Translations under genes and position numbers: made by a program
In this document: in pieces, positions 1 through 49,731 of the stretch
Layout: each line of letters opens with the position of its first letter
Position numbering within the stretch: the stretch's first letter is position 1
The notes under the pieces: generated by a model
Database searches by the model: none
What the model was told of the DNA's origin: nothing
The model's input: only the letters and a program-made list of their open reading frames with translations
Assembly: GCA_964016885.1 (NCBI GenBank)
Contig: OZ024741.1
Span: forward strand, 87,048,001-87,112,000
Length of the DNA: 64,000 nt
From: Eledone cirrhosa
Taxonomy: Eukaryota
Reading direction: 5' to 3'

Positions 1-22
1 TATTATTATTATTATTATTATT

Positions 23-2135
23 ACAGCTGCATTTATCTTGCTTTATGTTCATACGAGTTATCACCAAGTCACAACCAGTGACTTCAAGAGACAACAAGGT
101 CCGCCATGTTCAAGAAAGAACATACATACTCACACATGCATCTTTAGGTGTTTAGATTTATGATGTACTTATATTGACAGAATCTTCCTTAGTATATGGG
201 CAGTTCCCATTAGTACTATCTTTTGTATTTCTCCTATACGCGGGTTTCCTAGGATTTGCGATAAGTAATCATTAGACCCCTTAGGTATCATTCCTAGAGC
301 GCCTACAACCACTGGTATTGTTTTAGTTCTCAATTTCCACATTTTTCCAATTTCTATCTCCAGATCCTTATACTTGCTCAATTTTTCAAATGTTTTTATA
401 GATACATTCTTGTCTATTGGAACGGACATATCAATTAGCAAGCATACCCTCTTTTTAAAGTCCTTCAATATTATATCAGGTCTATTTGCATCTATTTTTC
501 GGTCTGTTTGGATGCTAAAGTTCCACAAGATTGAGATGTGATCTTTTTCAAGTATGGGAGGTGGTTGATGCCCCCACCAATTCTTTTGATGGGGCAGGTC
601 AAAATGCTTACACATTATCCAATGTATGTATTGTGCAGCTCTGTCATGCCTGTTTAGGTATTCGGTTGGAGCTATAGGACTGCACATTGAAATTATATGG
701 TCAATGGTCTCTGGTTGTTTTTTGCATACACGGCATAATGGGCTGCATCCATTTTTTATTATGTTGGCTTGGTAATTTTTTGTTGGCAGACACTGATCTT
801 GTGCTGATATAATCAGTCCTTCAGTCTCCGATTTCAGTCCAGAGGATGCCAACCACTGATGGGTTAAAGTTTTGTCAACATCAGGATTGTTAGCTCGTTC
901 TGGGTATTTTCCATACAGAGGCTTTTCTTGCCATTTCTTAACCAGTTTCTGTAGCAGTTCTTTCTTTGCAGTTACTTTTACCTGCTTTGCTTTTTCTGTG
1001 TTTTCCATTTCAGCAGTAAATGGGACTTCTGAAATTTGTAGTCCATTACTGTACCTTTGTGCATCTTTTGTAATTGAGTATGATCTTTTGATGCTTTCGT
1101 GTTTCAAAACGAGTTTGATCATCCAATCATTTGATTCCCTTAGATATGTAGATAATCCAATTGTTGCAGTTTTCAACGCAATGTCTAACTGGATTTTTTC
1201 TTGATCAAGTTCTCTTATCACGTTCCCCCGATCAAGATTAATGTCTGAACTCTTCAGCAGCTTTCCTCTGGTGAACGTTGCTTTGGCGCATTTATCTAGT
1301 CCAAACTCCATTTTAATTTTAATGTCATCACTGAACTGCTCCACAGTGGATAATAGCCCTTGGAATTGTTCATCATTTTTTGCAAATAGTTTCAGGTCAT
1401 CCATGTAGAACAAGTGATTAATGGTTTTGTCATAGACTTTATATCCATGTTTTGTTTCATTGAGCATTTTACTTAATGGTATAAGTGCGATGCAGAATAA
1501 AAGCGGTGATAAAGAGTCACCCTGAAAAATTCCACAATTAATATTAACATCTCCAGCTTCCAGTGATTTTGTTTCACTATTCAAAAGGAGTGTCGTTTTC
1601 CATGTCTTCATACTGAATGACAAAAACCTCCTGACAACGGGAGATATTTTGAAAATCTCTAAACATTTTTCAATCCAACTGTGTGGCAAACTATCGAATG
1701 CTTTTTTATAATCTATCCAAGCAATTGATAGATTTTTGTGTCTATTATGACAATCTTCCAGTATCATTTTGTTAACCAAAAGCTGATCCTTACAGCCATA
1801 TGAGCCTCGTTTACACCCTTTCTGCTCAATGGGAAATAGGTCATTTGTTATCAGGTGGTCATATGTGTATTCAGTTAGGACTGATATTAAAATTTTATAC
1901 ATTGTGGTCAAGCAAGTTATCGGTCTGTAATTTTTGGGATTGTTTGTCTCATCATTCTTCGGAAGCAGGAATGTAATGCCGTTAACTAGCCATGATGGTA
2001 TCTTTTCTGCCGCCTTAACTATTTCATTGTAAAGTTGGGCTAACAGCTCATGAGACTCTGTGAAGGCATTTATCCAAAAATTTTGTATTTTGTCTTTTCC
2101 TGGGGATTTCCATTTGCTGGTTTTTCTTAGAGCCA
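23..2135 (-). mobile_element. R4/Dong-like RLE non-LTR retrotransposon, family A, copy A1 (5'-truncated, internal in-frame deletion)
   Basis: ORF 169-2136 has RT motifs (WIDYKKAFD, QGDSLSP, FYMDD), a CxxC...HxxxxC knuckle (CRVCKKQPETIDHIISMC), RHD and the RLE motif RPD...LID...K. Flanked by (ATT)n at 1-22 and 2135-2158. Confidence 0.93.
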
Positions 2136-2136
2136 T
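169..2136 (-). pseudogene. Truncated RT-RLE polyprotein of copy A1
   Basis: Begins inside the RT region. Lacks about 107 aa present in A2 and A3 (reads ELDQEK|IQLD instead of ELDQEQTYKYLG...GRGLIQLD). Confidence 0.88.
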
Positions 2137-2371
2137 TATTATTATTATTATTATTATTGAATGCCATGGTTGACGGAGGCTCGGCTCTGTAAGGTATAGT
2201 AATTTTTAACCGTTAAAACAATTGTAAATTGTTTAAAACTTGAACCAAATTGTTGATAAAGACACCCTCCTCCTCGTGAGAGGGGTCTTTCTGTCCGTTA
2301 TTTGGCCCTTCGGGGTTAAATAACCAGTTATTGGGGTTTTGTACCCAAAATTTCATTTTAAACAAAAAAAC

Positions 2372-4463
2372 ATGGCTACCAAAAAGAAATTTCATACGTC
2401 ACTCCCACTCATTCCGTCTTCTTCTTCCTCAATCATCACTACAGCAGAGAGAAGATTGTCTCTCTCCCTCCCTTCTTTAAATGTGTCTCTCTCCCTCCCT
2501 TCTCTTTCGCAAGCGACGAAAGAAAATAAAAGTCTCGTGCAAAGCGTGCAAGGTTTCTCCACGACGACGACGACAGCGACGAAACAGGTGTGCGGGAAAT
2601 ACGAAAACCCAGTTCATTCGTCTGACGTCAGGAATAATAGCAGTAGCAGCCGTAATAACAACAGCAACAGTGACAATGAAAACAACAGTAGCAGCCGCAA
2701 CAGCATCACCAGCAGCATAAACAACAACAGCATTAGCAGCAGCAACACCAACAACAACCACAGCAACAGCGGCGGAGGCAGTAGTCGTAGTACCTGCAGC
2801 AACAACAAAAGTACCAGCAGCTCTGACGACAACAACAACAGCAGAGAAAAACCAATCTCATTTGCAGGTATTGCGAAAAACCTGGAAACAATCCTCATAA
2901 CAAATGAGGAATTAGAGGAAGCGAAGAAGATGGTGACAAAGAACGGACACCGAGCAATCTGCAAGGCAGCGAAAAATTTTTTCGAAACCCAAGAGCACTG
3001 TACGGTCACGTACCGTACAGTAAGTACAAAATCCCGTAGGGTGGAAAGAGCCACAGAGGCCCAAATACAAAAAGCCTTGGGGTCTGTGTGGCAGAGGAAA
3101 ACGCACATCACCCGAGGCAAAAAATACGCCACCGTAGACGTACTTTTTGCCACACCCCAGGAGGCAAAGGCCCAATCAGTAGTGACCCTAAGGAGCGAGG
3201 AAATGGTGTTGGTGCCCTCCTACTGCGGGCAAAAAATTGTGAGGGTCAAACTGACCCACGTCCCCCCCCGGAATGACCCCTTCTTGGCTGGCCGCGTCTG
3301 TCCTCGTCGGAATCGAGGACAAAACAACTGTACTGCAAGTACAGAAAAAAGTAAGAGAAGATTGGGTCGGCTCCTCCATTGAGATGCTAATCCAAACCAA
3401 CCAGGAGTGCATCGAAGCTATCCCGGATGTGATAGACTTCGATAACGGCACTCAACTGCCCATAAGTGTTGAGGGCAAACGCCCGAAATGCTTTCGCTGT
3501 GGATCGAAGACTCACCTCAGGGCCTTCTGCAACGAGAAGACCCTGAGAAAGGAGAAAACCCCCCTCCTCCCGAATCCGGTTCCACGGCTACCAGCAACAG
3601 GACAAGCGGCAACCAGGAACGATAGGTCCGTGGCACCCATACCCACTCCACGGAAATCAAAGACAGCAGCAGCAGTGGAAATATTAACAACAACAACAGC
3701 AATACCAAATGCAGCTGCAACAGAGACTCCAGTGCAAACATCACCAACAACAACAAGTGAAAGAGTGGAGCTGGTACCCCTCCCCGACCTTACAGAATCA
3801 GACATGGAGTGTGAGGTGGGAGAGGGATGGCAAAAGGTCTCAAGAAGGCACAAACGCAGAAGCAGCGCATCGTCGCCTTTGAAAAGGGAGGAAAGAAATG
3901 AGAAAAGGGTAAAGTCTACTGCAAAGAGACCCACAGCAGCAACACCACCAACACCATCACCACCCACACCAGCACCACCATCACCACCGGCGACAACCCC
4001 ACCGCCAACAACACCTTCAACACCACAAGCACCAACATCGCAAACACAACAACAAAACACACACACCCAGCAACAACGACAAGAAAATAGCAGAACCACA
4101 CCCCACCCCCAGAAAAACAAATGCACGGCAATAAATACACACAACAAGAAACTAATGACTTACATAATTGAACACACAGACATTTCACAACAGGACTACA
4201 TAATACCAGCACCAATCAAAACGCCAACTAACATAAGACTGCTAAAAATAGCACAGAAACAATACACAAACATTAAAACGAAATTCCCCAACGCAGTTGG
4301 TGATTTCAGGGACCTAGGAGGAACCATCAATCGAAGAGTATACTCAGACATTCTCTTAGAAGAGCCGACGACCAGCCGAAGGGACGATTCAACGGTCCCT
4401 TCACCAGACGATCAAGTGAAAAGGGATGTAAAAACCATCCCTCCTCTACCAAAAGTACGGTAA
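2372..4463 (+). CDS. Tx1 ORF1, gag-like nucleic-acid-binding protein (one +1 frameshift in the C8 run at 3262-3269)
   Basis: ORFs 2339-3382 and 3273-4463 join at VPP|GMTPSWL. Contains a CCHC knuckle (CFRCGSKTHLRAFC), Asn/Ser-rich and Pro/Thr-rich tracts. Homologous to the T2 ORF1. Confidence 0.8.
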
Positions 4464-4498
4464 GTGGTCTTTCCCATCTTTTCCACTCTATTTTAAAC

Positions 4499-7400
4499 AT
4501 GACCTCACTCAGAATAGGCAGCATAAATGCGCGTGGCTTGGGGTCGTCATGGAAGCAGGGTCACCTGCTCAACGACCTCAGGTCACTAAACATAGATGTA
4601 GTGGCCATCAGCGAGACCAGAATCTCCGAAGCACGGGCCTTCGTACCGATCTTCGGCGGCTACGATGTGTACGCATCTCCCAGCCGTCCTGGATCGGGTG
4701 GAGGAGTTGCTGTGCTTTTTCGGAGAGGTTTGGATCTCGCCATACGGGCCATCTTCCTGGACCCAGAGGGTAAGCTGGTGGTGCTGGACGTGACCAGCGG
4801 AGACGGGCAAGCTTTCAGGCTAGTGGCCGTCTATGCCCCGACAGGAGCAGGGCGGCCTGATTTCTTCCGGCGTCTGGAGACCTTTCTTGGAACGTCCCGC
4901 TCTTTAGTGTTAGTGGGCGACTGGAACGGGATCTTAGATGCACGCTGGGACTGTGTGGGATTAGCGGATAGGGGTGGAGGGTGCAAGAGCCTCACCAACC
5001 TGCTCAGGCGTTTTGAACTGTCTGACAGGTACCGATTGGATTTCCCGAATGTGCCAATGTGGACTTGGACAAACCGCATAGGGTCATCCAGATCATATCT
5101 AGATAGAGTATTTTGTAGGGAAATAGATAGGTCTAGCATAGGCTGTCCACAATTCAAGATAGTCAGCTACACGGACCACAAATTCGTGATCTGTGTGCTT
5201 GACTTAGATAGGCTTCATAGACGAGGACCCGGCTACTGGAAGCTAAACGCGTCCTTACCAGCGCGCAAGGCCTACAGAGACCGGATTAGCGAACTAGTTA
5301 AGCGGGCGTTGACGGGGGCCATCGTCAACAACAAGTGGTGGTTTGCTCTGAAAAGAGCGATTAGAATAGAATCGATTAGGTTTAGTAAGGCTTTAGCAAT
5401 AGAGAAAAATAGAGCAGAGGGAGAACTAGTTAGAAAATTAGACGAGGCGCTTAGCAAAGGCATTGCGACCGACGTGCTTGCGGCGAAATTGGCCCTTGAC
5501 CAATTCTTCAATGCAAAGCACGAAGGCTGCGTTGTCAGAGCTAAGGTGCGTGCTCTCAGACACGAGGGGACGAAAGCCGTTCAATGGGCCCGAGTGGCGG
5601 AGGCGCGTCGTGGCAACAAAGCCACGATCCGGTCTTTGGTGGACCACGACGGGCGCATGCTACTCGATCCCGGGCAAATGTGTGAAGCTTTTCAGCAACA
5701 CTTCGCTCAGCTGTTCGGGGGAAGCGGGGGGCCGGGTAGAGGGATGGACTTTAGTGTCTACCTCGACGGACTGCCGCGGCTCTCGGCCACTGAGGCGAGG
5801 TGTTGCGAAAAGCCGATAACAGCCGCTGAAGTACGGGAGGCAATGACTGGCTGCACAAGGGGTAAATCGCCTGGTTTGGATGGTCTGCCCTATGAACTTT
5901 ACGTACAGATGCCAGACTTGTTCGGAGGCCTCTTGGCGGACGTCTACTGCAACTGGCAACAGAACGGGAGAATTCCCAGTTCTGTGAGCCGAGGAGCGGT
6001 GGCACTGCTGAGAAAGGATCCGAACAAGGGGGATAACATAGACAATTTCCGGCCCATAACTCTGCTAAACACAGAGTTTAAGATTTTGGCCAAGGTGCTA
6101 GCAAAGAGGTTGGCGCTTGTCGTTGGTGGTCTGGTGGGAGAGGCGCAGACATGCGCCATTCCCGACAGATCCATCCACGACAACCTCCACCTCATGCGAT
6201 ACATCGTTGAGAGGGTAGCTAGGGAACCTGGCACGGGTGGGTCCTTGATCAATTTAGATCAGTCGAAAGCTTTCGATAGGGTCGACCATCGTTACCTAGC
6301 GGCAGTCCTGAGGGCGGCTGGCTTTGGGCCCGTCTTCAGAGGCTGGATCGCTGCCATGCACAGCGACATCTGCTCTGTGGTGAGAGTGAACGGTCACCTG
6401 TCGGAACCGTTCAACATCATGCGCTCGGTCCGCCAAGGATGTCCCCTCTCGTCCCTCTTGTACGTATTGACTCTCGAGCCATTACTGCACAAACTGGAGA
6501 CGTTGAGGGGAGTCCCGCGCGAACTAGGATGCGGAAGATCCGTGTCAGCATATGCGGACGATGTCACCGTAGTGGTGTCGAACGCCAAACACATCGAGGC
6601 GATCGGCACTACACTAAGAGAATACGAAGCGGTGACAGGAGCAATGATCAACCAGGAAAAGTCAGTGGGCCTGCAGCTCGGCACCTGGAGAGGCAGGTCC
6701 ATGCCGTCCAACAGCGTCGTCGGGCGCTGGACGGACGGACCGGTTAAATTGCTAGGGGTCTGGTTCGGTCCGGACCTCCAGACGGACAAAAACTGGGACG
6801 AGGTGACGAGCAGGGTGGCTTCTCTCACCCAGAAATGGGCGGAGAGGAAGCTATCCCTGAAAGGTCGAGCGGAGGTGGCTAACGCGTACATCGCGTCTGT
6901 CATCTGCTACCGCCTAACCGTCGTACCTTGTCCTAAGCCTCGCCTGACTGCGCTGGAGCGTTTGCTCTTTCGCTTTTTGTGGAAGGGACGTGCTCCGATG
7001 GTCAGGCGGTCCATCTGTTGTCAACACCCGCTACGTGGAGGGCTGGGCATGCCGTGGCTGATGATGCGCAGGCACGCGCTCAGGCTACGACATCTCCACC
7101 TCTTCCTCGACGGTGATCAGGTGTGGTCGCCGTTTGCTAGACGCGTTTTTCCCCAGCTCGTTTCCTTGACGGAGCTGCAGTCCTGGGTCAAGCGAAGACC
7201 GAGAGGGAGCGCCTGGAGACTGGAATGTCTTCAGGCGCTCACAGCCCTCGACCAATCGGGCAATGTGATCGGTGGAAACTCCACCTCGGCGTTCTATAGA
7301 GGATTAGTGGAGGGGAAGAGCGACGACGTACTTGGGGAAACTCTAGGCGTCGACGAAAATCAACTAGCCAATCTCTTCGGAAGAACTTTCGGGCCAGGGC

Positions 7401-7918
7401 CTATGGACAACTTCCAGAAATCTCTGGCCTGGCAGTGCTACCGAGGAGCCTTGCCAGTTCGGGATAAACTCTACAGGCATGGAGGTGCCGTCAGCCGGGC
7501 ATGTCCGAGATGCGCGCAGGGCGACGAAACCGTCCTGCACGCACTCGTCCAGTGTCCGAAAATTGCTGACTTGTGGGTTTATGTCGAACACCTGCTGTCG
7601 CGTTTAGGACGGATCCAGCTATCATCTGAGTCTATCGTGAGGATTGCCCCGCCCTCCTCCTTTAGCCGGGAAGGGCAGGCAGTTTTTATCTGTCTGGTGG
7701 CCATGGCGAAAGAGATAGTATGGTGGACACGTTTGAAAGGGCTGAAGACGAGCACTTACCTCTTCGGTGATGCTCTGATTGACTTTTTCAAATTTCATTT
7801 GAAAAGGAAAATCAGAGTAGAGAAGGAAGTGCTCTCTTCCCAGCATTTTGTTGAAAGATGGGTGAGAGAAGCAAGAATGGCCCGAGTGAATGGGCCGACT
7901 CTGAGTATATATCTGTAA
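4499..7918 (+). CDS. Tx1 ORF2: AP endonuclease + reverse transcriptase + C-terminal Cys/His motif, intact 1139 aa
   Basis: APE motifs SINARGL, AISET, GDWN, YLDR, TDH. RT motifs KSPGLDG, LDQSKAFD, QGCPLS, YADD. C-terminal CPRC...HALVQC. Confidence 0.95.
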   Translation: MTSLRIGSINARGLGSSWKQGHLLNDLRSLNIDVVAISETRISEARAFVPIFGGYDVYASPSRPGSGGGVAVLFRRGLDLAIRAIFLDPEGKLVVLDVTSGDGQAFRLVAVYAPTGAGRPDFFRRLETFLGTSRSLVLVGDWNGILDARWDCVGLADRGGGCKSLTNLLRRFELSDRYRLDFPNVPMWTWTNRIGSSRSYLDRVFCREIDRSSIGCPQFKIVSYTDHKFVICVLDLDRLHRRGPGYWKLNASLPARKAYRDRISELVKRALTGAIVNNKWWFALKRAIRIESIRFSKALAIEKNRAEGELVRKLDEALSKGIATDVLAAKLALDQFFNAKHEGCVVRAKVRALRHEGTKAVQWARVAEARRGNKATIRSLVDHDGRMLLDPGQMCEAFQQHFAQLFGGSGGPGRGMDFSVYLDGLPRLSATEARCCEKPITAAEVREAMTGCTRGKSPGLDGLPYELYVQMPDLFGGLLADVYCNWQQNGRIPSSVSRGAVALLRKDPNKGDNIDNFRPITLLNTEFKILAKVLAKRLALVVGGLVGEAQTCAIPDRSIHDNLHLMRYIVERVAREPGTGGSLINLDQSKAFDRVDHRYLAAVLRAAGFGPVFRGWIAAMHSDICSVVRVNGHLSEPFNIMRSVRQGCPLSSLLYVLTLEPLLHKLETLRGVPRELGCGRSVSAYADDVTVVVSNAKHIEAIGTTLREYEAVTGAMINQEKSVGLQLGTWRGRSMPSNSVVGRWTDGPVKLLGVWFGPDLQTDKNWDEVTSRVASLTQKWAERKLSLKGRAEVANAYIASVICYRLTVVPCPKPRLTALERLLFRFLWKGRAPMVRRSICCQHPLRGGLGMPWLMMRRHALRLRHLHLFLDGDQVWSPFARRVFPQLVSLTELQSWVKRRPRGSAWRLECLQALTALDQSGNVIGGNSTSAFYRGLVEGKSDDVLGETLGVDENQLANLFGRTFGPGPMDNFQKSLAWQCYRGALPVRDKLYRHGGAVSRACPRCAQGDETVLHALVQCPKIADLWVYVEHLLSRLGRIQLSSESIVRIAPPSSFSREGQAVFICLVAMAKEIVWWTRLKGLKTSTYLFGDALIDFFKFHLKRKIRVEKEVLSSQHFVERWVREARMARVNGPTLSIYL

Positions 7919-8179
7919 ACTAAAGGTGGAAAACTGGGAGAGGGCACTTGCCTTGGTGGTCAGGGTCATTGTGGCTTTTTACTGGGCTTTCTCCACAAAT
8001 GTCCCTCCGAAGTCTCCCCCCTATTGGGGAATTTTTTCATTGTTATTTTCATTGTTATTTTTGTTACATCCTCTGTTTTTGTTTTTTTACACGCAGAAAT
8101 GCCCATTTGTACCGTCCTGCATTGTCCTGCACTGTCCTTAATGTCTACTTTATGTAAACCCTTGTGGTTAATAAAGAAA

Positions 8180-8181
<2 letters not shown>

Positions 8182-8274
<93 letters not shown>
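8182..8274. repeat. (ATT)31 microsatellite between the 3' ends of T1 and A2
   Basis: Perfect trinucleotide run, read directly. Confidence 0.97.
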
Positions 8275-11200
8275 TGCATTTATCTTGCTTTATGTTTATA
8301 CGAGTTATCACCAAGTCACAACCAGTGACCTCAAGAGACAACAAGGTCCGCCATGTTCAAGAAAGAACACACATATTCACACATGCATCCTTAGTGTTTA
8401 GACTTGTGATGTACTTATATTGACAGGATCTTCCTTAGTATATGGGCAGTTCCCATTAGTACTATCTTTTGTATTTCTCCTATACGCGGGTTTCCTGGGA
8501 TTTGCGATAAGTAGTCGTTAGACCCCTTAGGTATCATTCCCAGAGCGCCTACAACCACTGGTATTGTTTTAGTTCTCAATTTCCACATTTTTCCAATTTC
8601 TATCTCCAGGTCCTTATACTTGCTCAATTTTTCAAATGTTTTTATAGATACATTCTTGTCTATTGGAACAGACATATCAATTAGCAGGCATACCCTCCTT
8701 TGAAAGTCCTTCAATATTATATCAGGTCTATTTGCATCTATTTTTCGGTCTGTTTGGATGCTAAAGTTCCACAAGATTGAGATGTGATCTTTTTCAAGTA
8801 TGGGAGGTGGTTGATGCTCCCACCAATTCTTTTGATGGGGCAGGTCAAAATGCTTACACATTATCCAATGTATGTATTGTGCAGCTCTGTCATGCCTGTT
8901 TAGGTATTCGGTTGGAGCTATAGGACTGCACATTGAAATTATATGGTCAATGGTCTCTGGTTGTTTTTTGCATACACGGCATAATGGGCTGCACCCATTT
9001 TTTATTATGTTGGCTTGGTAATTTTTTGTTGGCAGACACTGATCTTGTGCGGATATAATCAGTCCTTCAGTCTCCGATTTCAGTCCAGAGGATGCCAACC
9101 ACTGATGGGTTAAAGTTTTGTCAACATCAGGATTGTTAGCTCGCTCTGGGTATTTTCCATACAGAGGCTTTTCTTGCCATTTCTTAGCCAGTTTCTGTAG
9201 CAGTTCTTTCTTTGCAGTTACTTTTACCTGCTTTGCTTTTTCTGTGTTTTCCATTTCAGCAGTAAATGGGACTTCTGAAATTTGTAGTCCATTACTGTAT
9301 CTTTGTGCATCTTTTGTAATGGAATATGATCTTTTGGTGCTTTCGTGTTTCAAAACGAGTTTGATCATCCAATCATGTGATTCCCTTAGATATGTGGATA
9401 ATCCAATTGTTGCAGTTTTCAACGCAATGTCTAACTGGATTAACCCACGTCCTCCTTCTTTCCTAGGGAGATATATTCTATCTATGTCTGCCTTAGGGTG
9501 ATGCATTCTGTGCATGGTTAAGAATTTTCGGATTTTTGTATCGAGCCTACGGATCTCTGTGCTTGACCAGTTGATGACATTGTAACTGTAGGTTACTACT
9601 GGTATGGCAAGCGTGTTTATGGCATCGATCCTATTCCTTGCATTCAATTCCGTTCTTAAGATTGCTCTGACTCTGCGGTAACATTCCTTCCTTATCCTTT
9701 CCCTCATTGTCGAGTGCTTGATTCCGTCTCCTTCACAAACACCTAGATATTTGTAAGTTTGTTCTTGATCAAGCTCTCTTATCACGTTCCTCCAATCAAG
9801 ATTAATGTCTGAACTCTTCAGCAGCTTTCCTCTGGTGAACGTTGCTTTGGCGCATTTGTCCAGTCCAAACTCCATTTTAATGTCATCACTGAACTGCTTC
9901 ACAGTGGATAATAGCCCTTGCAATTGTTCATCATTTTTTGCAAATAGTTTCAGGTCATCCATGTAGAACAGGTGATTAATGGTTTTGTCATAGACTCTAT
10001 ATCCATGTTTTGTTTCATTGAGCATTTTACTTAATGGTATAAGTGCGATGCAGAATAAAAGCGGTGATAAAGAGTCACCCTGAAAAATTCCACAATTAAT
10101 GTTAACTTCTCCAGCTTCCAGTGATTTTGTTTCACTATTCAAAAGGAGTGTCGTTCTCCATGTCCTCATACTGAATGACAAAAACCTCCTGACAACGGGG
10201 GATATTTTGAAAATCTCTAAACATTTTTCAATCCAACTGTGTGGCAAATTATCAAATGCTTTTTTATAATCTATCCAAGCAATCGATAGATTTTTGTGTC
10301 TATTATGACAATCTTCCAGTATCATTTTGTTAACCAGAACCTGATCCTTACAGCCATATGAGCCTCGTTTACACCCTTTCTGCTCAATGGGAAATAGGTC
10401 ATTTGTTATCAGGTGGTCATATGTGTATTCAGTTAGGACTGATGTTAAAATTTTATACATTGTGGTCAAGCAGGTTATCGGTCTGTAATTTTTGGGATTG
10501 TTTGTCTCATCATTCTTCGGTAGCAGGAATGTAATGCCGTTAACTAGCCATGATGGTATCTTTTCTGGCTCCTTAACTATTTCATTGTAAAGTTGGGCTA
10601 ACAGCTCATGAGACTCTGTGAAGGCATTTATCCAAAAGTTTTGTATTTTGTCTTTTCCTGGGGATTTCCATTTGCTGGTTTTTCTTAGAGCCAAGCGCAG
10701 CTGTTCAACTGTTATATTTTCCCATGTTTGTTCTTCAAGGTGAGCTGTTTCTTTCATTTGTCTGTCTATCCATGGGGCATGTATGTTATGAACTTTTTCT
10801 TCGGCCCAGATCTTTTCCCAGAATTCTTGCACTTCCTCCTTGGGTGGTATTGATTTAGCAGTTATTGTTGACTTACCAATTTTTCTGTAGAAGTTTCTTT
10901 GGTTGTTTTTGAACATATTATTGTCCTTATAGAATCTAGATCGTTTTTCAAAGCGCCTTATACGAGCAGCTTTGGCCGACACTTTTTGCTTGATTGTTTC
11001 TATCAGCATGTCTATGTCACATGTTGATCTTATACTGTACTTTTTTTTCAATTTTCTAAGTTTAGTTTGTTTAACATGTTCACCTACTTTATAGTTTGTT
11101 AAAATTTCTATGTCAGATCGGAGAAGGTTTATTTGGCGATTGATGTTATCTTGCCAAGTAGATTTCTTGTGGGAATTCCTTTGTTTTTTCATCTTCACTC

Positions 11201-11560
11201 CACATAAGTGAGTGGTGACTTTAGCCGATGCATAATAGAGATGATTTAAGTCAGTAATGTTTATTTTGTTTGTGATGATAATGTTTTTGAGAATTATGTT
11301 AGTCTTGTGTATTATCTTTTGGTTCTGTTTGGAGTTCTGGATCTTAGGGAGGGTGTCTCGTTCCCCCATGTCAGATTCTTTCATTTTCATCCATTCGATC
11401 ATAATTTCATCCTTCAAGTTGGCAAGTTCATTCTCATTCATTTCTTTATCATTTACGATCTCATTATTTTCATTTGGAGTTTCATCCTGAGCATGCACTC
11501 CCTCCACTTTTTCGCTCCTTTCTTTAATTTGTTCTGTTGCCAGTGATTCCGCCCCAACTC
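8275..11560 (-). mobile_element. R4/Dong-like RLE element, family A, copy A2 (5'-truncated)
   Basis: Highly similar to A1 and A3. Flanked by (ATT)n on both sides. Confidence 0.94.
8415..11507 (-). CDS. RT-zinc knuckle-RLE polyprotein, uninterrupted over 1030 aa, N-terminus lost
   Basis: Motifs WKSPG, QGDSLSP, YMDD, YKYLG, EGGRGL, CRVC..H....C, RHD, RPD..D..K. The frame stays open upstream into the microsatellite with no native start. Confidence 0.92.
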   Translation of the reverse strand: MEGVHAQDETPNENNEIVNDKEMNENELANLKDEIMIEWMKMKESDMGERDTLPKIQNSKQNQKIIHKTNIILKNIIITNKINITDLNHLYYASAKVTTHLCGVKMKKQRNSHKKSTWQDNINRQINLLRSDIEILTNYKVGEHVKQTKLRKLKKKYSIRSTCDIDMLIETIKQKVSAKAARIRRFEKRSRFYKDNNMFKNNQRNFYRKIGKSTITAKSIPPKEEVQEFWEKIWAEEKVHNIHAPWIDRQMKETAHLEEQTWENITVEQLRLALRKTSKWKSPGKDKIQNFWINAFTESHELLAQLYNEIVKEPEKIPSWLVNGITFLLPKNDETNNPKNYRPITCLTTMYKILTSVLTEYTYDHLITNDLFPIEQKGCKRGSYGCKDQVLVNKMILEDCHNRHKNLSIAWIDYKKAFDNLPHSWIEKCLEIFKISPVVRRFLSFSMRTWRTTLLLNSETKSLEAGEVNINCGIFQGDSLSPLLFCIALIPLSKMLNETKHGYRVYDKTINHLFYMDDLKLFAKNDEQLQGLLSTVKQFSDDIKMEFGLDKCAKATFTRGKLLKSSDINLDWRNVIRELDQEQTYKYLGVCEGDGIKHSTMRERIRKECYRRVRAILRTELNARNRIDAINTLAIPVVTYSYNVINWSSTEIRRLDTKIRKFLTMHRMHHPKADIDRIYLPRKEGGRGLIQLDIALKTATIGLSTYLRESHDWMIKLVLKHESTKRSYSITKDAQRYSNGLQISEVPFTAEMENTEKAKQVKVTAKKELLQKLAKKWQEKPLYGKYPERANNPDVDKTLTHQWLASSGLKSETEGLIISAQDQCLPTKNYQANIIKNGCSPLCRVCKKQPETIDHIISMCSPIAPTEYLNRHDRAAQYIHWIMCKHFDLPHQKNWWEHQPPPILEKDHISILWNFSIQTDRKIDANRPDIILKDFQRRVCLLIDMSVPIDKNVSIKTFEKLSKYKDLEIEIGKMWKLRTKTIPVVVGALGMIPKGSNDYLSQIPGNPRIGEIQKIVLMGTAHILRKILSI

Positions 11561-11636
<76 letters not shown>

Positions 11637-11642
11637 GTTATT
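11561..11642. repeat. (TAT)n microsatellite with one GTT interruption
   Basis: Read directly; separates the A2 5' end from the B1 3' end. Confidence 0.95.

Positions 11643-13858: not shown

Positions 13859-13860
<2 letters not shown>
11643..13860 (-). mobile_element. R4/Dong-like RLE element, family B, copy B1 (5'-truncated, frameshifted)
   Basis: ORF 12535-13830 (RT: WIDYRKAFD, FMDD) and ORF 11717-12406 (CRIC..H....C, RHD, RPD...VD). (TAT)n at 13861-13912. Confidence 0.92.
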
Positions 13861-13912
<52 letters not shown>

Positions 13913-19597: not shown

Positions 19598-19792
19598 AAA
19601 AAATAACAGGATGTAACAAAAAATAACAATGAAAAATTTCCCAATAGGGGGGAGAATTCTGAGGGACATTTGTGGAGAAAGCCCATTAAAAGGCCACAGT
19701 GACCCTGACCACCAGGGCAAGTGCCCTCTCCCAGTTTGCCACCTTTAATTTACAGACACATACTCAGAGAAGGCCCATTTACTCGGGCCATA
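19596..19792 (-). mobile_element. Short Tx1-like 3'UTR fragment
   Basis: Reverse complement matches T1 ~7877-8085. Followed on the right by degenerate (AAT)n. Confidence 0.85.
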
Positions 19793-19817
19793 AAAATAAT
19801 AATAATAAAAATAATAA

Positions 19818-20025
19818 GCGCACTGGGGACTATCTCCAAAGGTTTCCAGGGATGGTTAAAGAAAATCGGCCCCTTCACGCTTTTTGGAACGCTTCAAAAG
19901 GCATGCTTGCTTGGAACGGCAAGAACCCTCCGATACGTCCTGAATATCTGAGGCTGCAGGTAGTGGCTTGATATTCAATCCAACGGACTTTCCAGTTAAC
20001 CAACATCAATGACTGAGATTCAAGG
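19818..20025 (+). mobile_element. Family B 3'-terminal fragment, copy B2
   Basis: Encodes ALGTISK...ARTLRYVLNI* plus the B 3'UTR. Flanked by (AAT)n. Confidence 0.9.
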
Positions 20026-20060
20026 AATAACAATAACAATAATAATAATAATAATAATAA

Positions 20061-23000: not shown

Positions 23001-23296
23001 GAGAAAATTAACCGATACCAGGAGCTAAAGTGGGAGGTGAAAAGGATTTGGAACTGCCATGAAGTCAAAGTGATCCCGATTGTCATAGGCGCACTGGGGA
23101 CTATCTCCAAAAGTTTCCAGGGATGGTTAAAGAAAATCTGCCCCTTCACGCTTTTTGGAACGCTTCAAAAGGCATGCTTGCTTGGAACAGCAAGAACCCT
23201 CCGATACGTCCTGAATATCTGAGGCTGCAGGTAGCGGCTTGATATTCATTCCAACGGACTTTCCAGTTAACCAACATCAATGACTGAGATTCAAGG
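20061..23296 (+). mobile_element. R4/Dong-like family B copy B3 (near full length, pseudogenised)
   Basis: ORFs 20095-21609, 21522-22589 and 22611-23222 are collinear pieces of one RT-RLE protein, with a frameshift at ~21520 and a TAG at 22587-22589. Confidence 0.93.
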
Positions 23297-23324
23297 AATA
23301 ACAACAATAATAATAATAATAATA

Positions 23325-26238
23325 ACAAATAATCCCACAAAAAATCTACTTGGCAAGAGAACATCAATCGCCAAATAAACCTTCTCCGATCTGACAGAAA
23401 TTTTAACAAACTATAAAGTAGGTGAACATGTTAAACAAACTAAACTTAGAAAATTGAAAAGAAAGTACAGTATAAAATCAACAAGTGACATAGACATGCT
23501 GATAGAAATAATCAAGCAAAAAGTGTCGGCAAAGCTGCTCGTATAAGGCGCTTTGAAAAACGATCTAGATTCTATAAGGAGAATAATATGTTAAAAAACA
23601 ACCAAAGAAACTTCTACAGAAAAATTGGTAAGTCAACAATAACTGCTAAATCAATACCACCCAAGGAGGAAGTGCAAGAATTCTGGGAAAAGATCTGGGC
23701 CGAAGAAAAAATTCATAATATACATGCCCCATGGACAGACAGATAAGTGAAAGATACAGCTCACTTTGTGGAACGCATATGGGAAAATATAACAGTTGAA
23801 CAGTTGCGCTTGGCTCTAAGAAAAACCAGCAAATGGAAATCCCCAGGAAAAGACAAAATACAAATTTTTTGGATAAATGCCTTCACAGAGTCTCATGAGC
23901 TGTTAGCCCAACTTTACAATGAAATAGTTAAGGAGGCAGAAAAGATACCATCATGGCTAGTTAACGGCATTACATTCCTGCTTCCGAAGAATGATGAGAC
24001 AAACAATCCCAAAAATTACAGACCGATAACTTGCTTGACCACAATGTATAAAATTTTAACATCAGTCCTAACTGAATACACATATGACCACCTGATAACA
24101 AATGACCTATTTCCCATTGAGCAGAAAGGGTGTAAACGAGGCTCATATGGCTGTAAGGATCAGCTTTTGGTTAACAAAATGATACTGGAAGATTGTCATA
24201 ATAGACACAAAAATCTATCAATTGCTTGGATAGATTATAAAAAAGCATTCGATAGTTTGCCACACAGTTGGATTGAAAAATGTTTAGAGATTTTCAAAAT
24301 ATCTCCCGTTGTCAGGAGGTTTTTGTCATTCAGTATGAAGACATGGAAAACGACACTCCTTTTGAATAGTGAAACAAAATCACTGGAAGCTGGAGATGTT
24401 AATATTAATTGTGGAATTTTTCAGGGTGACTCTTTATCACCGCTTTTATTCTGCATCGCACTTATACCATTAAGTAAAATGCTCAATGAAACAAAACATG
24501 GATATAAAGTCTATGACAAAACCATTAATCACTTGTTCTACATGGATGACCTGAAACTATTTTCAAAAATGATGAACAATTGCAAGGGCTATTATCCACT
24601 GTGGAGCAGTTCAGTGATGACATTAAAATTAAAATGGAGTTTGGACTAGATAAATGCGCCAAAGCAACGTTCACCAGAGGAAAGTTGCTGAAGAGTTCAG
24701 ACATTAATCTTGATCGGGGGAATGTGATAAGAGAACTTGATCAAGAGGAAACTTACAAATATCTAGGTGTTTGTGAAGGAGACGGAATCAAGCACTCGAC
24801 AATGAGGGAAAGAATAAGGAAGGAATGTTACCGCAGAGTAAGAGCAATCTTAAGTACGGAATTGAATGCAAGGAATAGGATCGATGCCATAAACACGCTT
24901 GCTATACCAGTAGTAACCTACAGTTACAATGTCATCAACTGGTCAAGCACAGAGATCCGTAGGCTCGATACAAAAATTCTAAAATTCTTAACCATGCACA
25001 GAATGCATCACCCTAAGGCAGATACAGATAGAATATATCTCCCTAGGAAAGAAGGAGGACGTGGGTTAATCCAGTTAGACATTGCGTTAAAAACTGCAAC
25101 AATTGGATTATCTACATATCTAAGGGAATCACATGATTGGATGATCAAACTCGTTTTGAAACACGAAAGCATCAAAAGATCATACTCCATTACAAAAGAT
25201 GCACAAAGATACAGTAATGGACTACAAATTTCAGAAGTCCCATTTACTACTGAAATGGAAAACACAGAAAAAGCAAAGCAGGTAAAAGTAACTGCAAAGA
25301 AAGAACTGCTACAGAAACTGGCTAAGAGATGGCAAGAAAAGCCTCTGTATGGAAAATACCCAGAACGAGCTAACAATCCTGATGTTGACAAAACTTTAAC
25401 CCATCAGTGGTTGGCATCCTCTGGACTGAAATCGGAGACTGAAGGACTGATTATATCAGCACAAGATCAGTGTCTGCCAACAAAAAATTACCAAGCCAAC
25501 ATAATAAAAAATGGATGCAGCCCATTATGCCGTGTATGCAAAAAACAACCAGAGACCATTGACCATATAATTTCAATGTGCAGTCCTATAGCTCCAACCG
25601 AATACCTAAACAGGCATGACAGAGCTGCACAATACATACATTGGATAATGTGTAAGCATTTTGACCTGCCCCATCAAAAGAATTGGTGGGAGCATCAGCC
25701 ACCTCCCATACTTGAAAAAGATCACATCTCAATCTTGTGGAACTTTAGCATCCAAACAGACCGAAAAATAGATGCAAATAGACCTGATATAATATTGAAG
25801 GACTTTAAAAAGAGGGTATGCTTGCTAATTGATATGTCCGTTCCAATAGACAAGAATGTATCTATAAAAACATTTGAAAAATTGAGCAAGTATAAGGATC
25901 CGGAGATAGAAATTGGAAAAATGTGGAAATTGAGAACTAAAACAATACCAGTGGTTGTAGGCGCTCTAGGAATGATACCTAAGGGGTCTAATGATTACTT
26001 ATCGCAAATCCTAGGAAACCCGCGTATAGGAGAAATACAAAAGATAGTACTAATGGGAACTGCCCATATACTAAGGAAGATTCTGTCAATATAAGTACAT
26101 CATAAATCTAAACACCTAAAGATGCATGTGTGAGTATGTATGTTCTTTCTTGAACATGGCGGACCTTGTTGTCTCTTGAAGTCACTGGTTGTGACTTGGT
26201 GATAACTCGTATGGACATAAAGCAAGATAAATGCAGCT

Positions 26239-26240
<2 letters not shown>
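23325..26240 (+). mobile_element. R4/Dong-like family A copy A3 (5'-truncated, frameshifted)
   Basis: ORFs 23747-24649 and 24580-26094 are near-identical to A1/A2. Followed by (AAT)n at 26241-26273. Confidence 0.93.
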
Positions 26241-26274
<34 letters not shown>

Positions 26275-29200
26275 GACATTCAAACATTACATTACAATGA
26301 AACTTATGCTTATTTTGGTTTTTTTTTACCTATTTGTTTGTTTGTTTATTTATGTTCGTCTACAGCGTGATAGTGCCACGCTAAAATCACCGGAGGTGAT
26401 GAAATCACCGGTGGTTATGTAACCATACATTCACCAATCCTCGATAAGAGTGTTTCAGTGTCGAACCTAAACAGTTCGAATAACGGTGAAGTGGAGACTG
26501 GAATGTCATGTGACAGACTCTCACCCAGCAGGTGTTCTCTGGCTCAGCAGCAGGGACCTGGCTGTCAATCAAATACTGCTGGTGTCGGAGGAAGAAGAAG
26601 GAAAAGGACCAGAACCAACTGGACGAAAGAATTGAATATAACTGTTATGCAATGTTACCTGAAGAGTAACCCCAAGGAAAAAGGCTATAGGAAACGGATG
26701 CATACAAACATTGGCCGGGCAGGCTCGAGTAATAAGAACTAATGGGTGGATAAGCGAGCTGGAACTGGAGGAACTGAGCAGAGAGATTAGGTTGGAAATG
26801 GAGAGTGGAGTATGCCAAGCAAATGAGCCAGTGGGAAATGAAGGTGAGGAGGTTGAGAGAACGGAAGAACCATCCGAAGCAGACAATGATCTGAATGCTG
26901 AAATAAATAACATCTGGAACAAAGATACGGCCATAGAGGAAATGAATGCTAACGGGCTAAGACAAGATTTGGTTGATATCCTAAACTTAGTGGTAGATGA
27001 AATGAACAATGATAGTGGGAAACCTATGAACCTAAGATTTGTAGACAGGAGAAAGTTAAAAGAAACAACAGCTAAGGTAAACAAAGTCATCCCATACCTT
27101 GAGGCGAGGAGCCTTCACCAGTGCAACAATATCCTCAAAGCAACAGCAAATGCGTTGAGGAAATTTGCATAAAAGCGAGAGGAAACAACAAACAAGAAAG
27201 ATCAGAACCTTGGTGGAAGAAATGACTGAATGGTCAAATCAGGGAAATGAGAAATGACATTGGAAAGCTTGAGTCCCTACTGAATGGGACACTAAAAACA
27301 TAGACACTAAAAATAGACTGGAAATAAAGTACAAAACTAGGAGAAAAAAGCTAAATATTATCATAGAGGAACTGAAGCAACGCATTGTAGCAAAGAGTGC
27401 AAAAATTAGGCGATACGAGAGCAGAGTCAGTCAGTATAGACAGAACCGCATGTTTGACAACAACCAGAAGATGTTGTTTGGACAGCTTGAAGGGAAAGAA
27501 AGAAGCAACGACTTGATCCCTGAGGCGGAACAAACTAAAACATTCTGGAGAGGAATATGGGAGCAGGATGTTAAACATAATAACCAGGCAGTGTCGATTG
27601 AGACAGTACAAAAGGAGTTAGTGAACAGGCACACCAACAAACTGATTTGAGTATCACAGTTGAAACTCTCAAGGGGCAGGCCAAAAAACTTTACCAACTG
27701 GAAATCACCAGGCCCAGATGGTGTGCAAGGGTATTGGATTAAAAATGTAACATCCCTCCACCCGAAGCTGACAACCATGTTCAATGACTGCTTGATGTCA
27801 GGTGAGGTACCAGAGTGGTTGACAAAAGGTACCACAGTTCTGGTAATGAAAGACTGAATCAAGGGTAATGATGTTACCAACTATAGACCTATCACATGTC
27901 TGTCCGTAATGTGGAAACTGTTAACAAGCATTGTGTCTGAGGAAATCTACCATCACCTCCACACAAACAACTTGTTACCGGACGAACAGAAAGGATGCCG
28001 AAAGAAGTCCCGTGGTACAAAGGACCAGATACTTATTGATAAATGGTAATGAGCAATTGCAAGAGGAGACGCACTGGTCTTTCCATGGGATGGATAGACT
28101 ACAAAAAGGCATTTGACATGGTGCCTCATTCTTGGATCACCAAAAGCATAGAGATCTTCAAGGTGGCAGATAACATCAGACAGTTGTTGAGCAAAAGTAT
28201 GAAGTCCTGGAAAACAGAATTAACATCAGCTGGAGAATCCTTGGGAGGCGTGAAGCTCAAGAGAGGTATCTTCCAGGGAGATAGTCTGTCCCCTCTGTTG
28301 TTTGTCCTTGCCCTGATGCCCCTGACAATTCTACTGCGAAAGGTGAGAGCAGGATACAAGTTGGGAAAGGGAGAGCTTACCATCAATCACCTCCTCTTCA
28401 TGGACGATCTTAAACTCTTCGGGAAGAGTGAGAAGGAGTTGGATGTGCTTGTTGACACTGTCCGTATTTTCAGCAATGATATATGTATGCAATTTGGTAT
28501 TAGTAAGTGTGGAGTCATTGTGATGAGGAGGGGTAAATTGAGCAGAAACAACGGAATCCTGGTACCAACAGGTGAGATGATAAAGGAAATTGACACTGAA
28601 GAAGGATACAAGTATTTGGGTATTCTGGAGGCTGATGACATCAAAAACAAAAAAATGAAGGAATTGATAAGATCTGAATACATTCGGAGAGTAAGGAGCG
28701 TATTAAAGTCACATCTGAACAGTAGGAATGCCATAAGTGCAGTAAATTCCCGAACTGTGTCTATTATTAGGTACAGTGCGGGAATTCTGAGATGGAATAT
28801 TGCTGAACTAAAAGAAATGGATAGGAAGACCAGGAAGCTATTGACTATCTACAACATTTTCCACAAAAGGAGTGATGTTGATAGACTCTACTTAAGGAGA
28901 TCTGAAGGTGGAAGAGGTCTTATCAACATAGAGGACTGTGTTCAGATGGAGAAAAACAACCTACACAAATACGTGACCGATAGTAAGGAGCCAATGCTCA
29001 GAATTGTACTGAAGGAGAAGACAATAGACCAGGGGATGTCCAGGGAGGAAATAACAACAAGGAGAAAGAGCAACCTTCATGAAAAATCCCTTCATAGTAC
29101 CTTCTTTGAGAAAACGGGATTCAGAGATCCACAGACATGGAACTGGTTGAGAAGAGGAGACCTCAAAAAGGCTACAGAAGTAACCTTAAAAAGGCTACAG

Positions 29201-29933
29201 AAGGAATGCTAATGGCTGCGCAAGAGCAGGCCCTCAAAACGAAGTGGTTGAAACACCATATTTACAAGGAGGAGGCTAACCCACTGTAGAGGATCTGTGG
29301 AGAGAGAGAGGAAACTGTGGCTCACATTGTATCCGAGTGTAAATACCTAGCCCAGACTCACTATAAAGGCTGGATACATTATGTGATGGGCAGGGTGGTC
29401 CACTGGCACCTATGCAAAGTAAACAATTTACCACATTCTGAGAAGTGGTATGAGCATAAGCCAGAGTCGGTGATAGAAAACGATCAGGTGAAGGTGCTAT
29501 GGGATTTTAGGATACAGACGGACAAGAAACTGGAACACAATAGACCTGACCTGGTGGTTTTGGACAAGGAAAAAAGATCGTGCCTGATTGTGGATGTGTC
29601 CTGCCCATTCGACACGAGAGTGCAAGAGAAGGAGAGGGAGAAAATTAACCGATACCAGGACTTAAAGTGGGAGGTAAAAAGGATTTGGAACTGCCATGAA
29701 GTCAAAGTGGTTCCGATTGTCATAGGCGCAGTATGTACTATCTCAAAAAGTTTCCAGGGATGGTTAAAGAAAATTGGCCCCGCCTCGCTTTTTGGTACAC
29801 TTCAAAAGGCATGCTTGCTAGGGACAGCAAGAACCCTCCGATACGTCCTGAATATCTGAGGCTGCAGGTAGTGTCTTGATATTCATGTCAACAAACTTTC
29901 CAGTTAACTAACATCAATGACTGAGATTCAAAG
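26275..29933 (+). mobile_element. R4/Dong-like family B copy B4, probably full length with 5'UTR, degenerate
   Basis: N-terminal motif WTKELNITVMQCY...GYRKRM, typical of R4-clade N-termini. RT at 28043-29212, RLE at 29317-29859, with multiple stops and frameshifts. Confidence 0.9.
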
Positions 29934-29951
29934 AACAATAATAATAAGAAT

Positions 29952-31118
29952 GCTTTTTTTTATTAACCACAAGGGTTGACACAAAGTATAACATTAAGGA
30001 CAACACAGGACAAAAGAAATGGGCAGTTCTGCGTGTAAAAAAACAAAAACAGAGTATGTGACAAAAAAGGAAACAATGAAAAATTCCCCAATAAGGGGGG
30101 GGGGGAAGACTTCCGAGGGTTGCTTGTGGAGAAAACCCACAAGAAAAGCCACGGTTACCCTGACCGCTAGGGCAAATGCCCTCTTCCAGTTTTCCTCTTA
30201 CAATGCTACAGGCACACGCTCAGGGTAGGCCCATTCACACGGGTCATTTTTGCCTCTCTCACCCACCTTTCAACAAACTGGCTGGAAGTTAGCACTGCCC
30301 TCTCCACCCTGTTTTTCCTTTTCAGGTGAAACTTGAAAAAGTTAATGAGGGCGTCACCGAAGATGAAAGTAGGTGTTTACAGCAGATGGACCGCCAGCGA
30401 TGGACCACAAAAAGTGAAAGAGCAAACGCTTCAGCGCAGTCATGCGAGGCTTAAGACAAGGCAAGACGGTCAGGCGTTAGTAGATGACGGACGCGATGTA
30501 CGCGTTCGCCACCTCCGCTCGACCTTTCAGGGATAGCTTCCTCTACGACCATTTCTGGGTGAGAGAGGCCACCCTGCTCGTCCCCTCGTCCCAGTTTTTG
30601 TGCGTCTGGAAGTTCGGACTGAATCAGACCCCAAGCAATTTAATCGGTCCGTTCGTCCAGCGCCCGACGACGCTGTTGCACGGCATGGACCTGCCTCTCC
30701 AGGTGCCGGCCTACTGATTTTTCCTGGTTGATCATTGCTCCTGTCAACGCTTCGTATTCTCTTAGTGTGGTGCCAATCGGCTCGATGTGTTTGGCGTTCG
30801 ACACCACTACGGTGACGTTGTCGGCATATGCTGACACGGTTCTTCCGCATCCCAGTTCGCGGGGGAACCCCCTCAACGTCTCCAGTTTGTGCAGTAATGG
30901 CTCGAGAGTCAATACGTACAACAGGGATGAGAGGAGATATCCTTGGCGGACCGACCGCATGATGTTGAACGGTTCCGAAAGGTTACAGTTCACTCGCACC
31001 ACAGAGCAGATGTCGCTGTGCATGGCAGCAATCCAGACACTGAAGACAGACCCAAAGCTAGCCGCCCTCAGGACTGTCGCCAGATAACGATGGTCGATTC
31101 TATCGAAAGCTTTCGACT
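29952..31118 (-). mobile_element. Older, internally deleted Tx1-like copy
   Basis: RT fragment (SKAFD, QGYLLS, YADN) joined to the ORF2 end and 3'UTR, with AATAAA and an ATT-type tail. Confidence 0.87.
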
Positions 31119-31127
31119 AATAGTAAT

Positions 31128-31290
31128 GCTTTCTTTATTCACCACAAGGGTTGACACAAAGTATGACAGCACAGAAAAATACAGGACGGTACAAATGGGA
31201 ATTTCTGCGTGTAAAAAAAAACAAAAACAGAGGATGTAACAGAAAAAGGAACAAGGAAAAATTCCCTAATAGTGGGGAGACTTACGAGGG
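31128..31290 (-). mobile_element. Tx1-like 3'UTR fragment marking the right edge of the array
   Basis: The minus strand reads ...CCCTTGTGGTGAATAAAGAAAGC followed by ATTACTATT, as at the T1 3' end. Confidence 0.85.

Positions 31291-49678: not shown

Positions 49679-49731
<53 letters not shown>

Follow-up and report, generated by a model that had tools for sequence, protein, structure and literature searches.

In the genome of Eledone cirrhosa, the first 31 kb of a 64,000-nt window (OZ024741.1, positions 87,048,001-87,112,000; this sequence is C2 in the locus labels, C1-C4 being sequences of the 3.0-Gb assembly) are occupied by a nest of retrotransposons interleaved with (TAA)n microsatellite tracts. 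Two R4/Dong-like families, here called A and B, which carry a restriction-like endonuclease (RLE) motif, occupy the (TAA)n strand; the (ATT)n strand is occupied by T, a Tx1-like family with an apurinic/apyrimidinic-type endonuclease (APE). Such nests are found genome-wide, and quite probably arise through target-primed reverse transcription (TPRT) from nicks on opposite strands of the repeat. A first-pass annotation of the window had proposed that one (TAA)n microsatellite serves an RLE clade on one strand and an APE clade on the other, and the genome-wide data support it.

Targeting and polarity across the genome

Most loci fetched from the assembly (L-numbers) came from the best 30-40 matches of searches that gave 55 to 3,909 candidates each. 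The 5' flanks were scored over 250 loci, which are nest-enriched, and 5' ends were used as the test of target versus tail because 3' tracts cannot separate the two. Thirty rows of truncated T2-type copies were set aside, since their breaks arise against the internally deleted T2 reference of the window and are not element ends, as was one A row with an ATT 5' flank, which is a patch of a short interspersed element (SINE). At positions picked at random, a tract of this kind occurs by chance in 0.7-0.8% of cases within the fetched loci; for window 31300-64000 the figure is 0-0.2%.

Among 147 truncated 5' ends of A and B, 91 adjoin TAA, one adjoins ATT (a SINE mis-hit) and 55 neither. The 25 full-length A/B 5' ends comprise 19 on TAA and six on neither. 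All full-length T 5' ends are on ATT (69/69), and the 15 truncated ones divide into seven on ATT and eight on neither. Two further sets were chosen blind to the flank. The first contains A copies anchored internally (L171-L200), whose visible 5' ends are on TAA in 10/19 cases and on ATT in 0/19. The second consists of 58 older T copies anchored at the 3' end; of their 29 visible 5' ends, 12 are on ATT, one on TAA and 16 on neither, and one 3' end is also on TAA. Phase is conserved as well, since 83/83 T1-type 5' flanks finish in ATT (exactly ATT|G) and 93/95 flanks at T 3' ends start with ATT. With respect to target preference by head type, ATT-ending 5' flanks are present in 83/83 T1-type and 35/37 T2-type copies.

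A census of 194 distinct repeat-separated junctions between neighbours, drawn from 315 loci, gives the same picture. Sides belonging to A or B (214) are TAA in 212 cases, ATT in one and mixed in one, and T sides (129) are ATT in 125 and mixed in four. A/B and T neighbours are in opposite orientation in 75/75 junctions; orientation is the same for A/B next to A/B in 58/59 and for T next to T in 21/21. Neither random 5' flanks nor mixed orientation was therefore seen genome-wide. The polarity had been described as strict: this holds nearly without exception across the genome, but it is not absolute, as the single reversed A/B side among 214 and the two older T ends on TAA illustrate.

The repeats could alternatively be heads or tails carried by the elements themselves, with no insertion into pre-existing microsatellites. 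LINEs (long interspersed elements) with TAA tails exist, such as the I element (PMC3747384), and the lengths of T1-type 5' tracts break off sharply near 18 bp (79/83 are at least 18 bp), as they also could if the RNA began inside the tract. Against this stand 5' ends truncated at dozens of arbitrary positions that still adjoin a tract in the correct polarity; because even these ends obey the rule, the repeat is a target and not just a tail. Imperfections of the tract are also duplicated from the local flank, indicating that the tract predates the insertion, and T occupies SINE tails as well as the ends of compound repeats of the host (CAT/ATT, TTC/ATT). We regard purely element-borne repeats as very improbable.

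Organisation of the nest in the window

The pieces were counted from self-BLAST, lists of open reading frames (ORFs) and alignment to natural full-length copies. The nest comprises 13 copies or fragments (three A, four B and six T), which together with the tracts account for 31,292 of 31,293 bases, so that the three families reported in about 13 copies with no host DNA between them were indeed recovered. From left to right on the + strand, the order is A1-, T1+, A2-, B1-, T2+, then, beyond the change of polarity, T3-, T4-, B2+, B3+, A3+, B4+, T5-, T6-. The features are the following:

1-23 (+), (TTA)n tract at the A1 3' end; upstream of the window it adjoins a 5'-truncated B copy
24-2134 (-), A1, 5'-truncated member of family A, matching 2476-4894 of a natural copy of 4,894 bp at 97% identity
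2135-2158 (+), (ATT)8 tract separating the 5' ends of A1 and T1
2159-8181 (+), T1, full-length Tx1-like element of 6,023 bp
8182-8274 (+), (ATT)31 tract separating the 3' ends of T1 and A2
8275-11560 (-), A2, family A, 5' truncation at 1608; identity to an intact copy 99.8%
11561-11640 (+), (TTA)n tract separating the A2 5' end from the B1 3' end
11641-13859 (-), B1, family B, 5'-truncated at about 2177 of 4,385 bp
13860-13912 (+), (TTA)17 tract separating the 5' ends of B1 and T2
13913-18453 (+), T2, with the second type of 5' untranslated region (UTR) and ORF1; ORF2 95% identical to that of T1; final 952 bp absent
18453-18454 (no strand), polarity flip, a tail-to-tail T/T join without repeat and with 1-nt microhomology
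18454-19597 (-), T3, T fragment 4770-5976, final 47 bp absent
19598-19794 (-), T4, short T 3' fragment (about 5719-5920), fused to T3 without repeat
19795-19813 (+), imperfect (AAT)n tract
19814-20037 (+), B2, short 3' fragment of family B
20038-20058 (+), (AAT)7 tract
20059-23305 (+), B3, family B, 5'-truncated at about 1157, frameshifted
23306-23332 (+), (AAT)6 tract with an imperfect end
23333-26239 (+), A3, family A, 5'-truncated at about 1995, frameshifted
26240-26273 (+), (TAA)11 tract
26274-29935 (+), B4, family B, 5'-truncated at about 715 (within the 5' UTR), decayed
29936-29947 (+), short degenerate (AAT)n tract separating the 3' ends of B4 and T5
29948-31117 (-), T5, older T subfamily, 4100-4870 fused to 5596-6021
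31118-31293 (-), degenerate ATT tract and T6, old T 3' fragment (5842-6021), whose 5' end meets host DNA without repeat

Each of the seven A/B copies is flanked on both sides by tracts that read (TAA/AAT)n on its sense strand, which includes the 5'-truncated ends, and every T end of the window that adjoins a tract lies on (ATT)n. To the left of 18453 the + strand tracts read ATT, with A and B on the - strand and T on the + strand, and the right side is the mirror image. The assignment of all RLE copies to the (AAT)n sense strand and of the repeat-adjoining Tx1 copies to the (ATT)n strand, in both halves of the array, was thus borne out. The joins free of repeat are those at 18453 and 19597 (both T/T) and the outer end at 31293. 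Upstream of the window the nest continues for about 4.9 kb with older B pieces and two SINEs.

The only full-length copy of the array is T1. Its ORF1 encodes one CCHC knuckle and has one additional C within a run of C, and its ORF2 is open over 1,139 aa with APE, reverse transcriptase (RT) and zinc finger regions. A2 contains RT, CCHC and PD-(D/E)xK endonuclease motifs within one open frame, and A1 carries an internal deletion of about 317 bp.

Families A and B

The natural full-length copy of family A is 4,894 bp long, and an intact ORF of 1,216 aa is present in five of seven fetched copies. This ORF matches Pfam RVT_1 (E 2.6e-29) and aligns with R2 proteins through the CCHC/PD-(D/E)xK motifs (E 9e-27). 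Family B is 4,385 bp long at full length, with no intact ORF among six fetched copies. The CCHC finger and the PD-(D/E)xK motif are visible in the translations of both families, and Pfam scans gave no Exo_endo_phos (APE) match in either. The A and B proteins are 33-51% identical across pieces (about 40%).

Dong has a single ORF with RT, CCHC and restriction-like endonuclease, and R4/Dong proteins have a Myb-like N-terminal domain and lack the N-terminal C2H2 fingers seen in R2. A C2H2 pattern was not found in any of 13 relatives. The N-terminal piece of A is predicted to fold into four helices (pLDDT 85), with no match in the PDB under E 1. Insertion in sense orientation to (TAA)n, as in R4/Dong, was found for both families. 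Domain architecture and target together make A and B a fit to the R4/Dong group.

The first 116 nt of A and B are common to both at 80% identity (L235:193-310, L239:1086-1200) and constitute a candidate promoter or processing element. A ribozyme at this shared end or at the T 5' end was considered and rejected: an Rfam scan of L235, L239 and L100 returned 11 matches, all under the gathering score, and none to a self-cleaving ribozyme family.

Family T

The ORF2 of T matches Exo_endo_phos, RVT_1 and zf-RVT in Pfam. Its nearest solved structures are the L1 endonuclease and ORF2p, and the catalytic residues N, E, Y, D, N, D and H are kept. The translation of ORF1 contains a single CX2CX4HX4C knuckle and matches no Pfam ORF1 family, including Transposase_22; in the ESM Atlas its top score is 0.84, a lead only. 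A gag-like CCHC knuckle is a feature of Tx1 ORF1 (PMC5203782), and by its domain architecture T appears to be a Tx1-like member of the L1 group. Since both ORFs are intact in 28/36 copies and the top 40 matches to the T1 5' end are all 100% identical, T is young and probably active.

Two different heads are present in family T. The 5' UTRs of T1 and T2 are unrelated (window 2159-4480 vs 13913-15720), and the ORF1 cores are 53% identical in protein, while ORF2 is 95% identical; both types begin with G straight after ATT. The head replacement lies at the border between ORF1 and ORF2.

A SINE of 182 bp, which we take to have a tRNA-like head and a Deu-like core, is present at window 43609-43791, 49540-49927 and 62010-62163 and at L239:879-1060. 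It shares the polarity of T in the junction census (44/45 tract sides ATT, one mixed), and over roughly its final 20 bases it is similar to the 3' end of T; ATT is found less regularly at its 5' ends (16/53). This SINE is possibly a non-autonomous partner of T.

Strand choice and growth of the nests

According to the TPRT model, the nicked strand primes antisense cDNA. The primer would then be the (TTA)n strand for A and B and the (TAA)n strand for T, whose junctions fit a nick at 5'-AAT^AAT-3' (a TpA step). The choice of strand would putatively be made by the endonuclease. Each insertion would split one tract into two and, because tract stays on both sides, local targets would multiply and nests would grow. 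The claim that target remains on both sides of insertions and that the locus grows by nesting is supported.

Alternatively, the 3' tail of the RNA, (AUU)n for T and (UAA)n for A and B, could pick the strand by pairing with the primer, with endonucleases able to nick either strand of AT-rich repeats. TpA steps occur in the repeat on either strand, the tracts at T 3' ends exceed those at T1-type 5' ends in length (median 42 vs 26 bp), as expected of an RNA-borne tail, and a pure 24-bp spacer at C4:358 Mb exceeds the pure suffix of the left flank. However, in the ten-copy T array on C1 described below, the imperfect target itself follows directly after the T 3' end, starting ATTATTGTT or GTT, which implies that the RNA supplied little or no repeat tail there. 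In addition, the specificity of the Tx1 clade is ascribed chiefly to the endonuclease (PMC4494074). Strand choice by the tail alone is, in our view, rather unlikely.

Several points weigh against nests formed by endonuclease-directed insertion into opposite strands. Besides the possible part of RNA-tail pairing, the sample of loci is biased toward young copies and nests. Approximately 40-55% of the truncated 5' ends lack a tract under the strict rule, and decay, later deletion or looser targeting may account for them. There are also true exceptions to the polarity, few in number (L127, L324 and L342). Finally, the assignments of A and B to R4/Dong and of T to Tx1 rest on domain architecture, together with the target in the case of A and B, and not on a tree with named references: no named R4/Dong reference was found among 13 homologues, and no named Tx1 among 34 + 9 homologues or the cluster members inspected, the sole named T-like match being a short one, at 64%, in an Octopus sinensis gene model. 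We nevertheless hold to insertion on opposite strands as the better reading of the data.

Tandem T arrays and shared 5' ends

Outside the window, T also forms head-to-tail arrays. Ten copies are present at C1:441,086,500-441,143,100 (L251, L091-L096) and at least five at C3:247.09-247.13 Mb, and there are several two-copy sites. In these arrays the spacers match a suffix of the left flank, and neighbours have 5' blocks in common with the copy downstream. In the C1 array, 9/9 spacers are suffixes of the left flank (50 or 51, 36 and 30 bp), and the left flank itself is unchanged; similarly, the spacer at C1:22 Mb is a 34-bp suffix of its left flank. The array probably grew leftward, since its rightmost copy is the most diverged (47 private substitutions vs 0-5 in the other complete copies) and the only complete copy with a broken ORF2.

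Sharing between neighbours was scored in a single alignment of 50 complete T copies, with a cutoff of at most one differing site per 2-kb block. The C1:234 Mb pair was excluded as not directly adjacent, and so were the partial pairs (C1arr 1/2, L106 and two 580-bp comparisons), whose first differences are at 1410, 186, 165 and none. The first 2 kb are common to 10/22 adjacent pairs vs 5/1,168 pairs from different loci, and the last 2 kb to 2/22 vs 65/1,168. Blocks shared between neighbours contain alleles private to the locus. This suggests that the 5' end of a new insertion is copied from the resident copy downstream. A new T copy would nick the tract 30-51 bp upstream of a resident T; the end of its cDNA, often incomplete, would pair with the resident copy and then copy the 5' part of the resident and the tract back to the nick.

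Post-insertion unequal crossing-over or gene conversion could also produce shared 5' blocks. Some pairs are near-identical throughout (0 differences at C2:28 Mb, 2-5 at C3:247 Mb), which fits plain duplication and weighs against neighbour-templated 5' ends, and breakpoints recur near 2.0-2.2 kb and 5.2 kb. Unequal crossing-over predicts that the 3' part of a copy matches its left neighbour, and the mismatches found in 4/4 tested array copies (12, 3, 12 and 17 differences) count against it. The best 3' match of the tested copies is at another locus, except for C1arr_7, where it is tied with a non-adjacent copy of the same array. Sharing is moreover anchored at the 5' end with no enrichment at the 3' end, and two-copy arrays show the same. 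Rearrangement or gene conversion after insertion is thus rather unlikely as the source of the blocks.

Copying from the resident has its own difficulties. Twelve of the 22 tandem pairs have no shared 2-kb 5' block, an absence expected where the cDNA is full length. Young T copies are also mostly full length with or without a following T head: 29/32 are full length, and the three truncated ones all lack a downstream T head. The wider proposal is that T is an active, (ATT)n-specific Tx1 that builds head-to-tail arrays without a second-strand cut, its cDNA invading the resident copy and copying its 5' end, so that truncations would be repaired to full length and T1/T2 heads swapped, and that, with Dong on the other strand, (TAA)n tracts would become self-expanding nests. 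We judge this proposal as a whole to be about evenly balanced between right and wrong.

Two other observations concern these arrays. In L096, the leftmost copy of the C1 array, T stops at 2112 and is followed by the spacer, with identity to its neighbour up to 1410, which suggests priming inside the RNA at an A/U-rich site. At L269 (C1:197.44 Mb), a 30-bp imperfect ATT segment is duplicated in the T 5' flank, in a host repeat related to the left flank of the C1 array; the duplication is possibly the footprint of an aborted or lost insertion.

Chromosomal position and the polarity flip

The window lies 87 Mb into a 416-Mb sequence and is therefore interstitial. Of 71 mapped A and T matches, counted on sequences of known length, only one comes within 2 Mb of an end, and the matches per fifth of the large sequences are 14, 10, 22, 14 and 11. 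In anchored sets of 30, the ends adjoining another family member number 20 (A 3'), 18 (T 3') and 23 (T1 5'), and 17 (B 3') and 20 (T2 5') in two sets with one end unscored in each. Since 17-23 of 30 ends per set adjoin another member, the nest is one of many, and the window is a long example of a common interstitial structure.

The locus had been likened to a telomere array, and a chromosome end, a centromere or a piRNA cluster could in principle maintain such an array through the host. The 31-36 kb free of host DNA and the location of the ten-copy T array 1.7 Mb from the end of C1 would agree with this. However, the site is interstitial, matches are spread along the large sequences, nesting is the usual state of families A, B and T, and the copies are of mixed ages, most of them dead. 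The telomere-like reading is unsupported and host maintenance scarcely credible.

At the flip, T2 lacks 952 bp and T3 lacks 47 bp of their 3' ends, and the two are joined with 1-nt microhomology. It is likely that two nests of opposite polarity were brought together here afterwards, by a deletion that ran from one T copy to another facing it; the flip is separate from targeting. Two other origins were rejected. An inversion would make T6 the missing end of T2, which it is not, because T6, at the far end, is only 77-83% identical to the 3' end of T2-type copies, which T2 itself matches at 93-95%. An inverted segmental duplication of the halves was discarded since A1 and A3, 99% identical, have different 5' ends and neighbours.

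An assembly error could have misjoined the halves at 18453, as the join sits between two high-copy repeats and is spanned by the window's own place alone among 40 scored matches of 1,107 candidates. Contigs of four read runs gave none spanning the flip among 32 listed of more than 23,000. Yet two diverged copies on opposite strands meet there abruptly, with 1-nt microhomology, an outcome that would be unusual for repeat collapse, and the depth bin across the flip is above zero in 4/4 read runs. A misjoin is improbable, and the polarity result is independent of the join. Direct switches from (TAA)n to (TTA)n are present at L012, L016, L228, L273 and L342; nests starting from the two sides of such a switch would lie next to each other with opposite polarity, as the two halves of this nest do.

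Other features of the window

Decayed RT ORFs at window 54353-57047 (+) and 58154-61357 (-), with weak RVT_1 matches and a C-terminal stretch that looks GIY-YIG-like by eye, are probably Penelope-like elements. An inverted pair, 94% identical, is formed by window 53319-54407 and 56596-57733. A GC-rich block (55-57%) on an AT-rich background at window 44800-48000 contains several ORFs of 150-245 aa and is probably another fragment of a transposable element (TE).

Comparison with known systems

Families A and B resemble Dong, DongAg and DongBg in their TAA target and in a single ORF with RT, CCHC and restriction-like endonuclease. Unlike Dong alone, two families of about 40% protein identity here share one target and a 116-nt 5' end, and they are interleaved with an APE element on the other strand. 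The TAA microsatellite target of Dong has been reported in silkworm, mosquito and the snail Biomphalaria (PMC3812793). Dong-R4 and L1-Tx1 are abundant in coleoids (PMC8967140), and in Octopus vulgaris recently active Dong-R4 copies are described, with L1-Tx1 active too (PMC13282606, Table 1). The same octopus annotation of 2026 reports TE hotspots, and the word 'target' is absent from its main text (PMC13282606). Nesting of the kind described here offers a mechanism for TE hotspots in large mollusc genomes.

Tx1 families are known to target (TC)n, (TTC)n, (TTCC)n and (TTTC)n (PMC4494074). T is similar to Kibi, Koshi and the crocodilian TTCC/TTTC families in its ORF2 with APE, RT and zinc finger, its CCHC ORF1 and its insertion into microsatellites, and differs from them in its (ATT)n target. 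No (ATT)n-specific Tx1 was found in the literature searched, which did not take in Repbase, the 2004 paper of Kojima and Fujiwara, or the supplements and Fig. 3 of PMC4494074.

With respect to the use of one target by two endonuclease classes, Keno (APE, Tx1) and Utopia (RLE) evolved in parallel onto one target in the U2 snRNA gene (PMC4640811). Keno and Utopia share the same site and 3' flank, whereas here opposite strands are used of a microsatellite that each insertion regenerates. SART and TRAS lie in opposite orientation in the telomeric repeats of Bombyx (PMC10088271). They are similar to A, B and T as families in opposite orientation within one simple repeat, but both belong to the R1 clade and lie at chromosome ends, whereas two unrelated endonuclease classes are found here at interstitial sites genome-wide. 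Two endonuclease classes on opposite strands of one microsatellite were not found in the literature searched. Each ingredient is precedented: Dong in TAA, microsatellite-specific Tx1, APE/RLE convergence on U2 and the opposite orientation of TRAS and SART. A/B and T constitute a clean pair for asking what fixes strand and phase in TPRT.

The pairing of cDNA with a nearby resident L1 in cultured cells was reportedly described by Gilbert and colleagues. The attachment of the LINE 5' end has been called the greatest uncertainty of the R2 model, and R2 cDNA annealing to target sequence yields uniform 5' junctions (PMC3774820). Neighbour-templated 5' ends would bear on this step of TPRT, and young intact T copies carry haplotypes of single-nucleotide polymorphisms that record 5' attachment, so that the question is testable. 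Compared with R2 and with chimeric L1, the partner here would be the resident copy just downstream, the duplicated block would be 1-5 kb long, and the event would repeat, building natural head-to-tail arrays.

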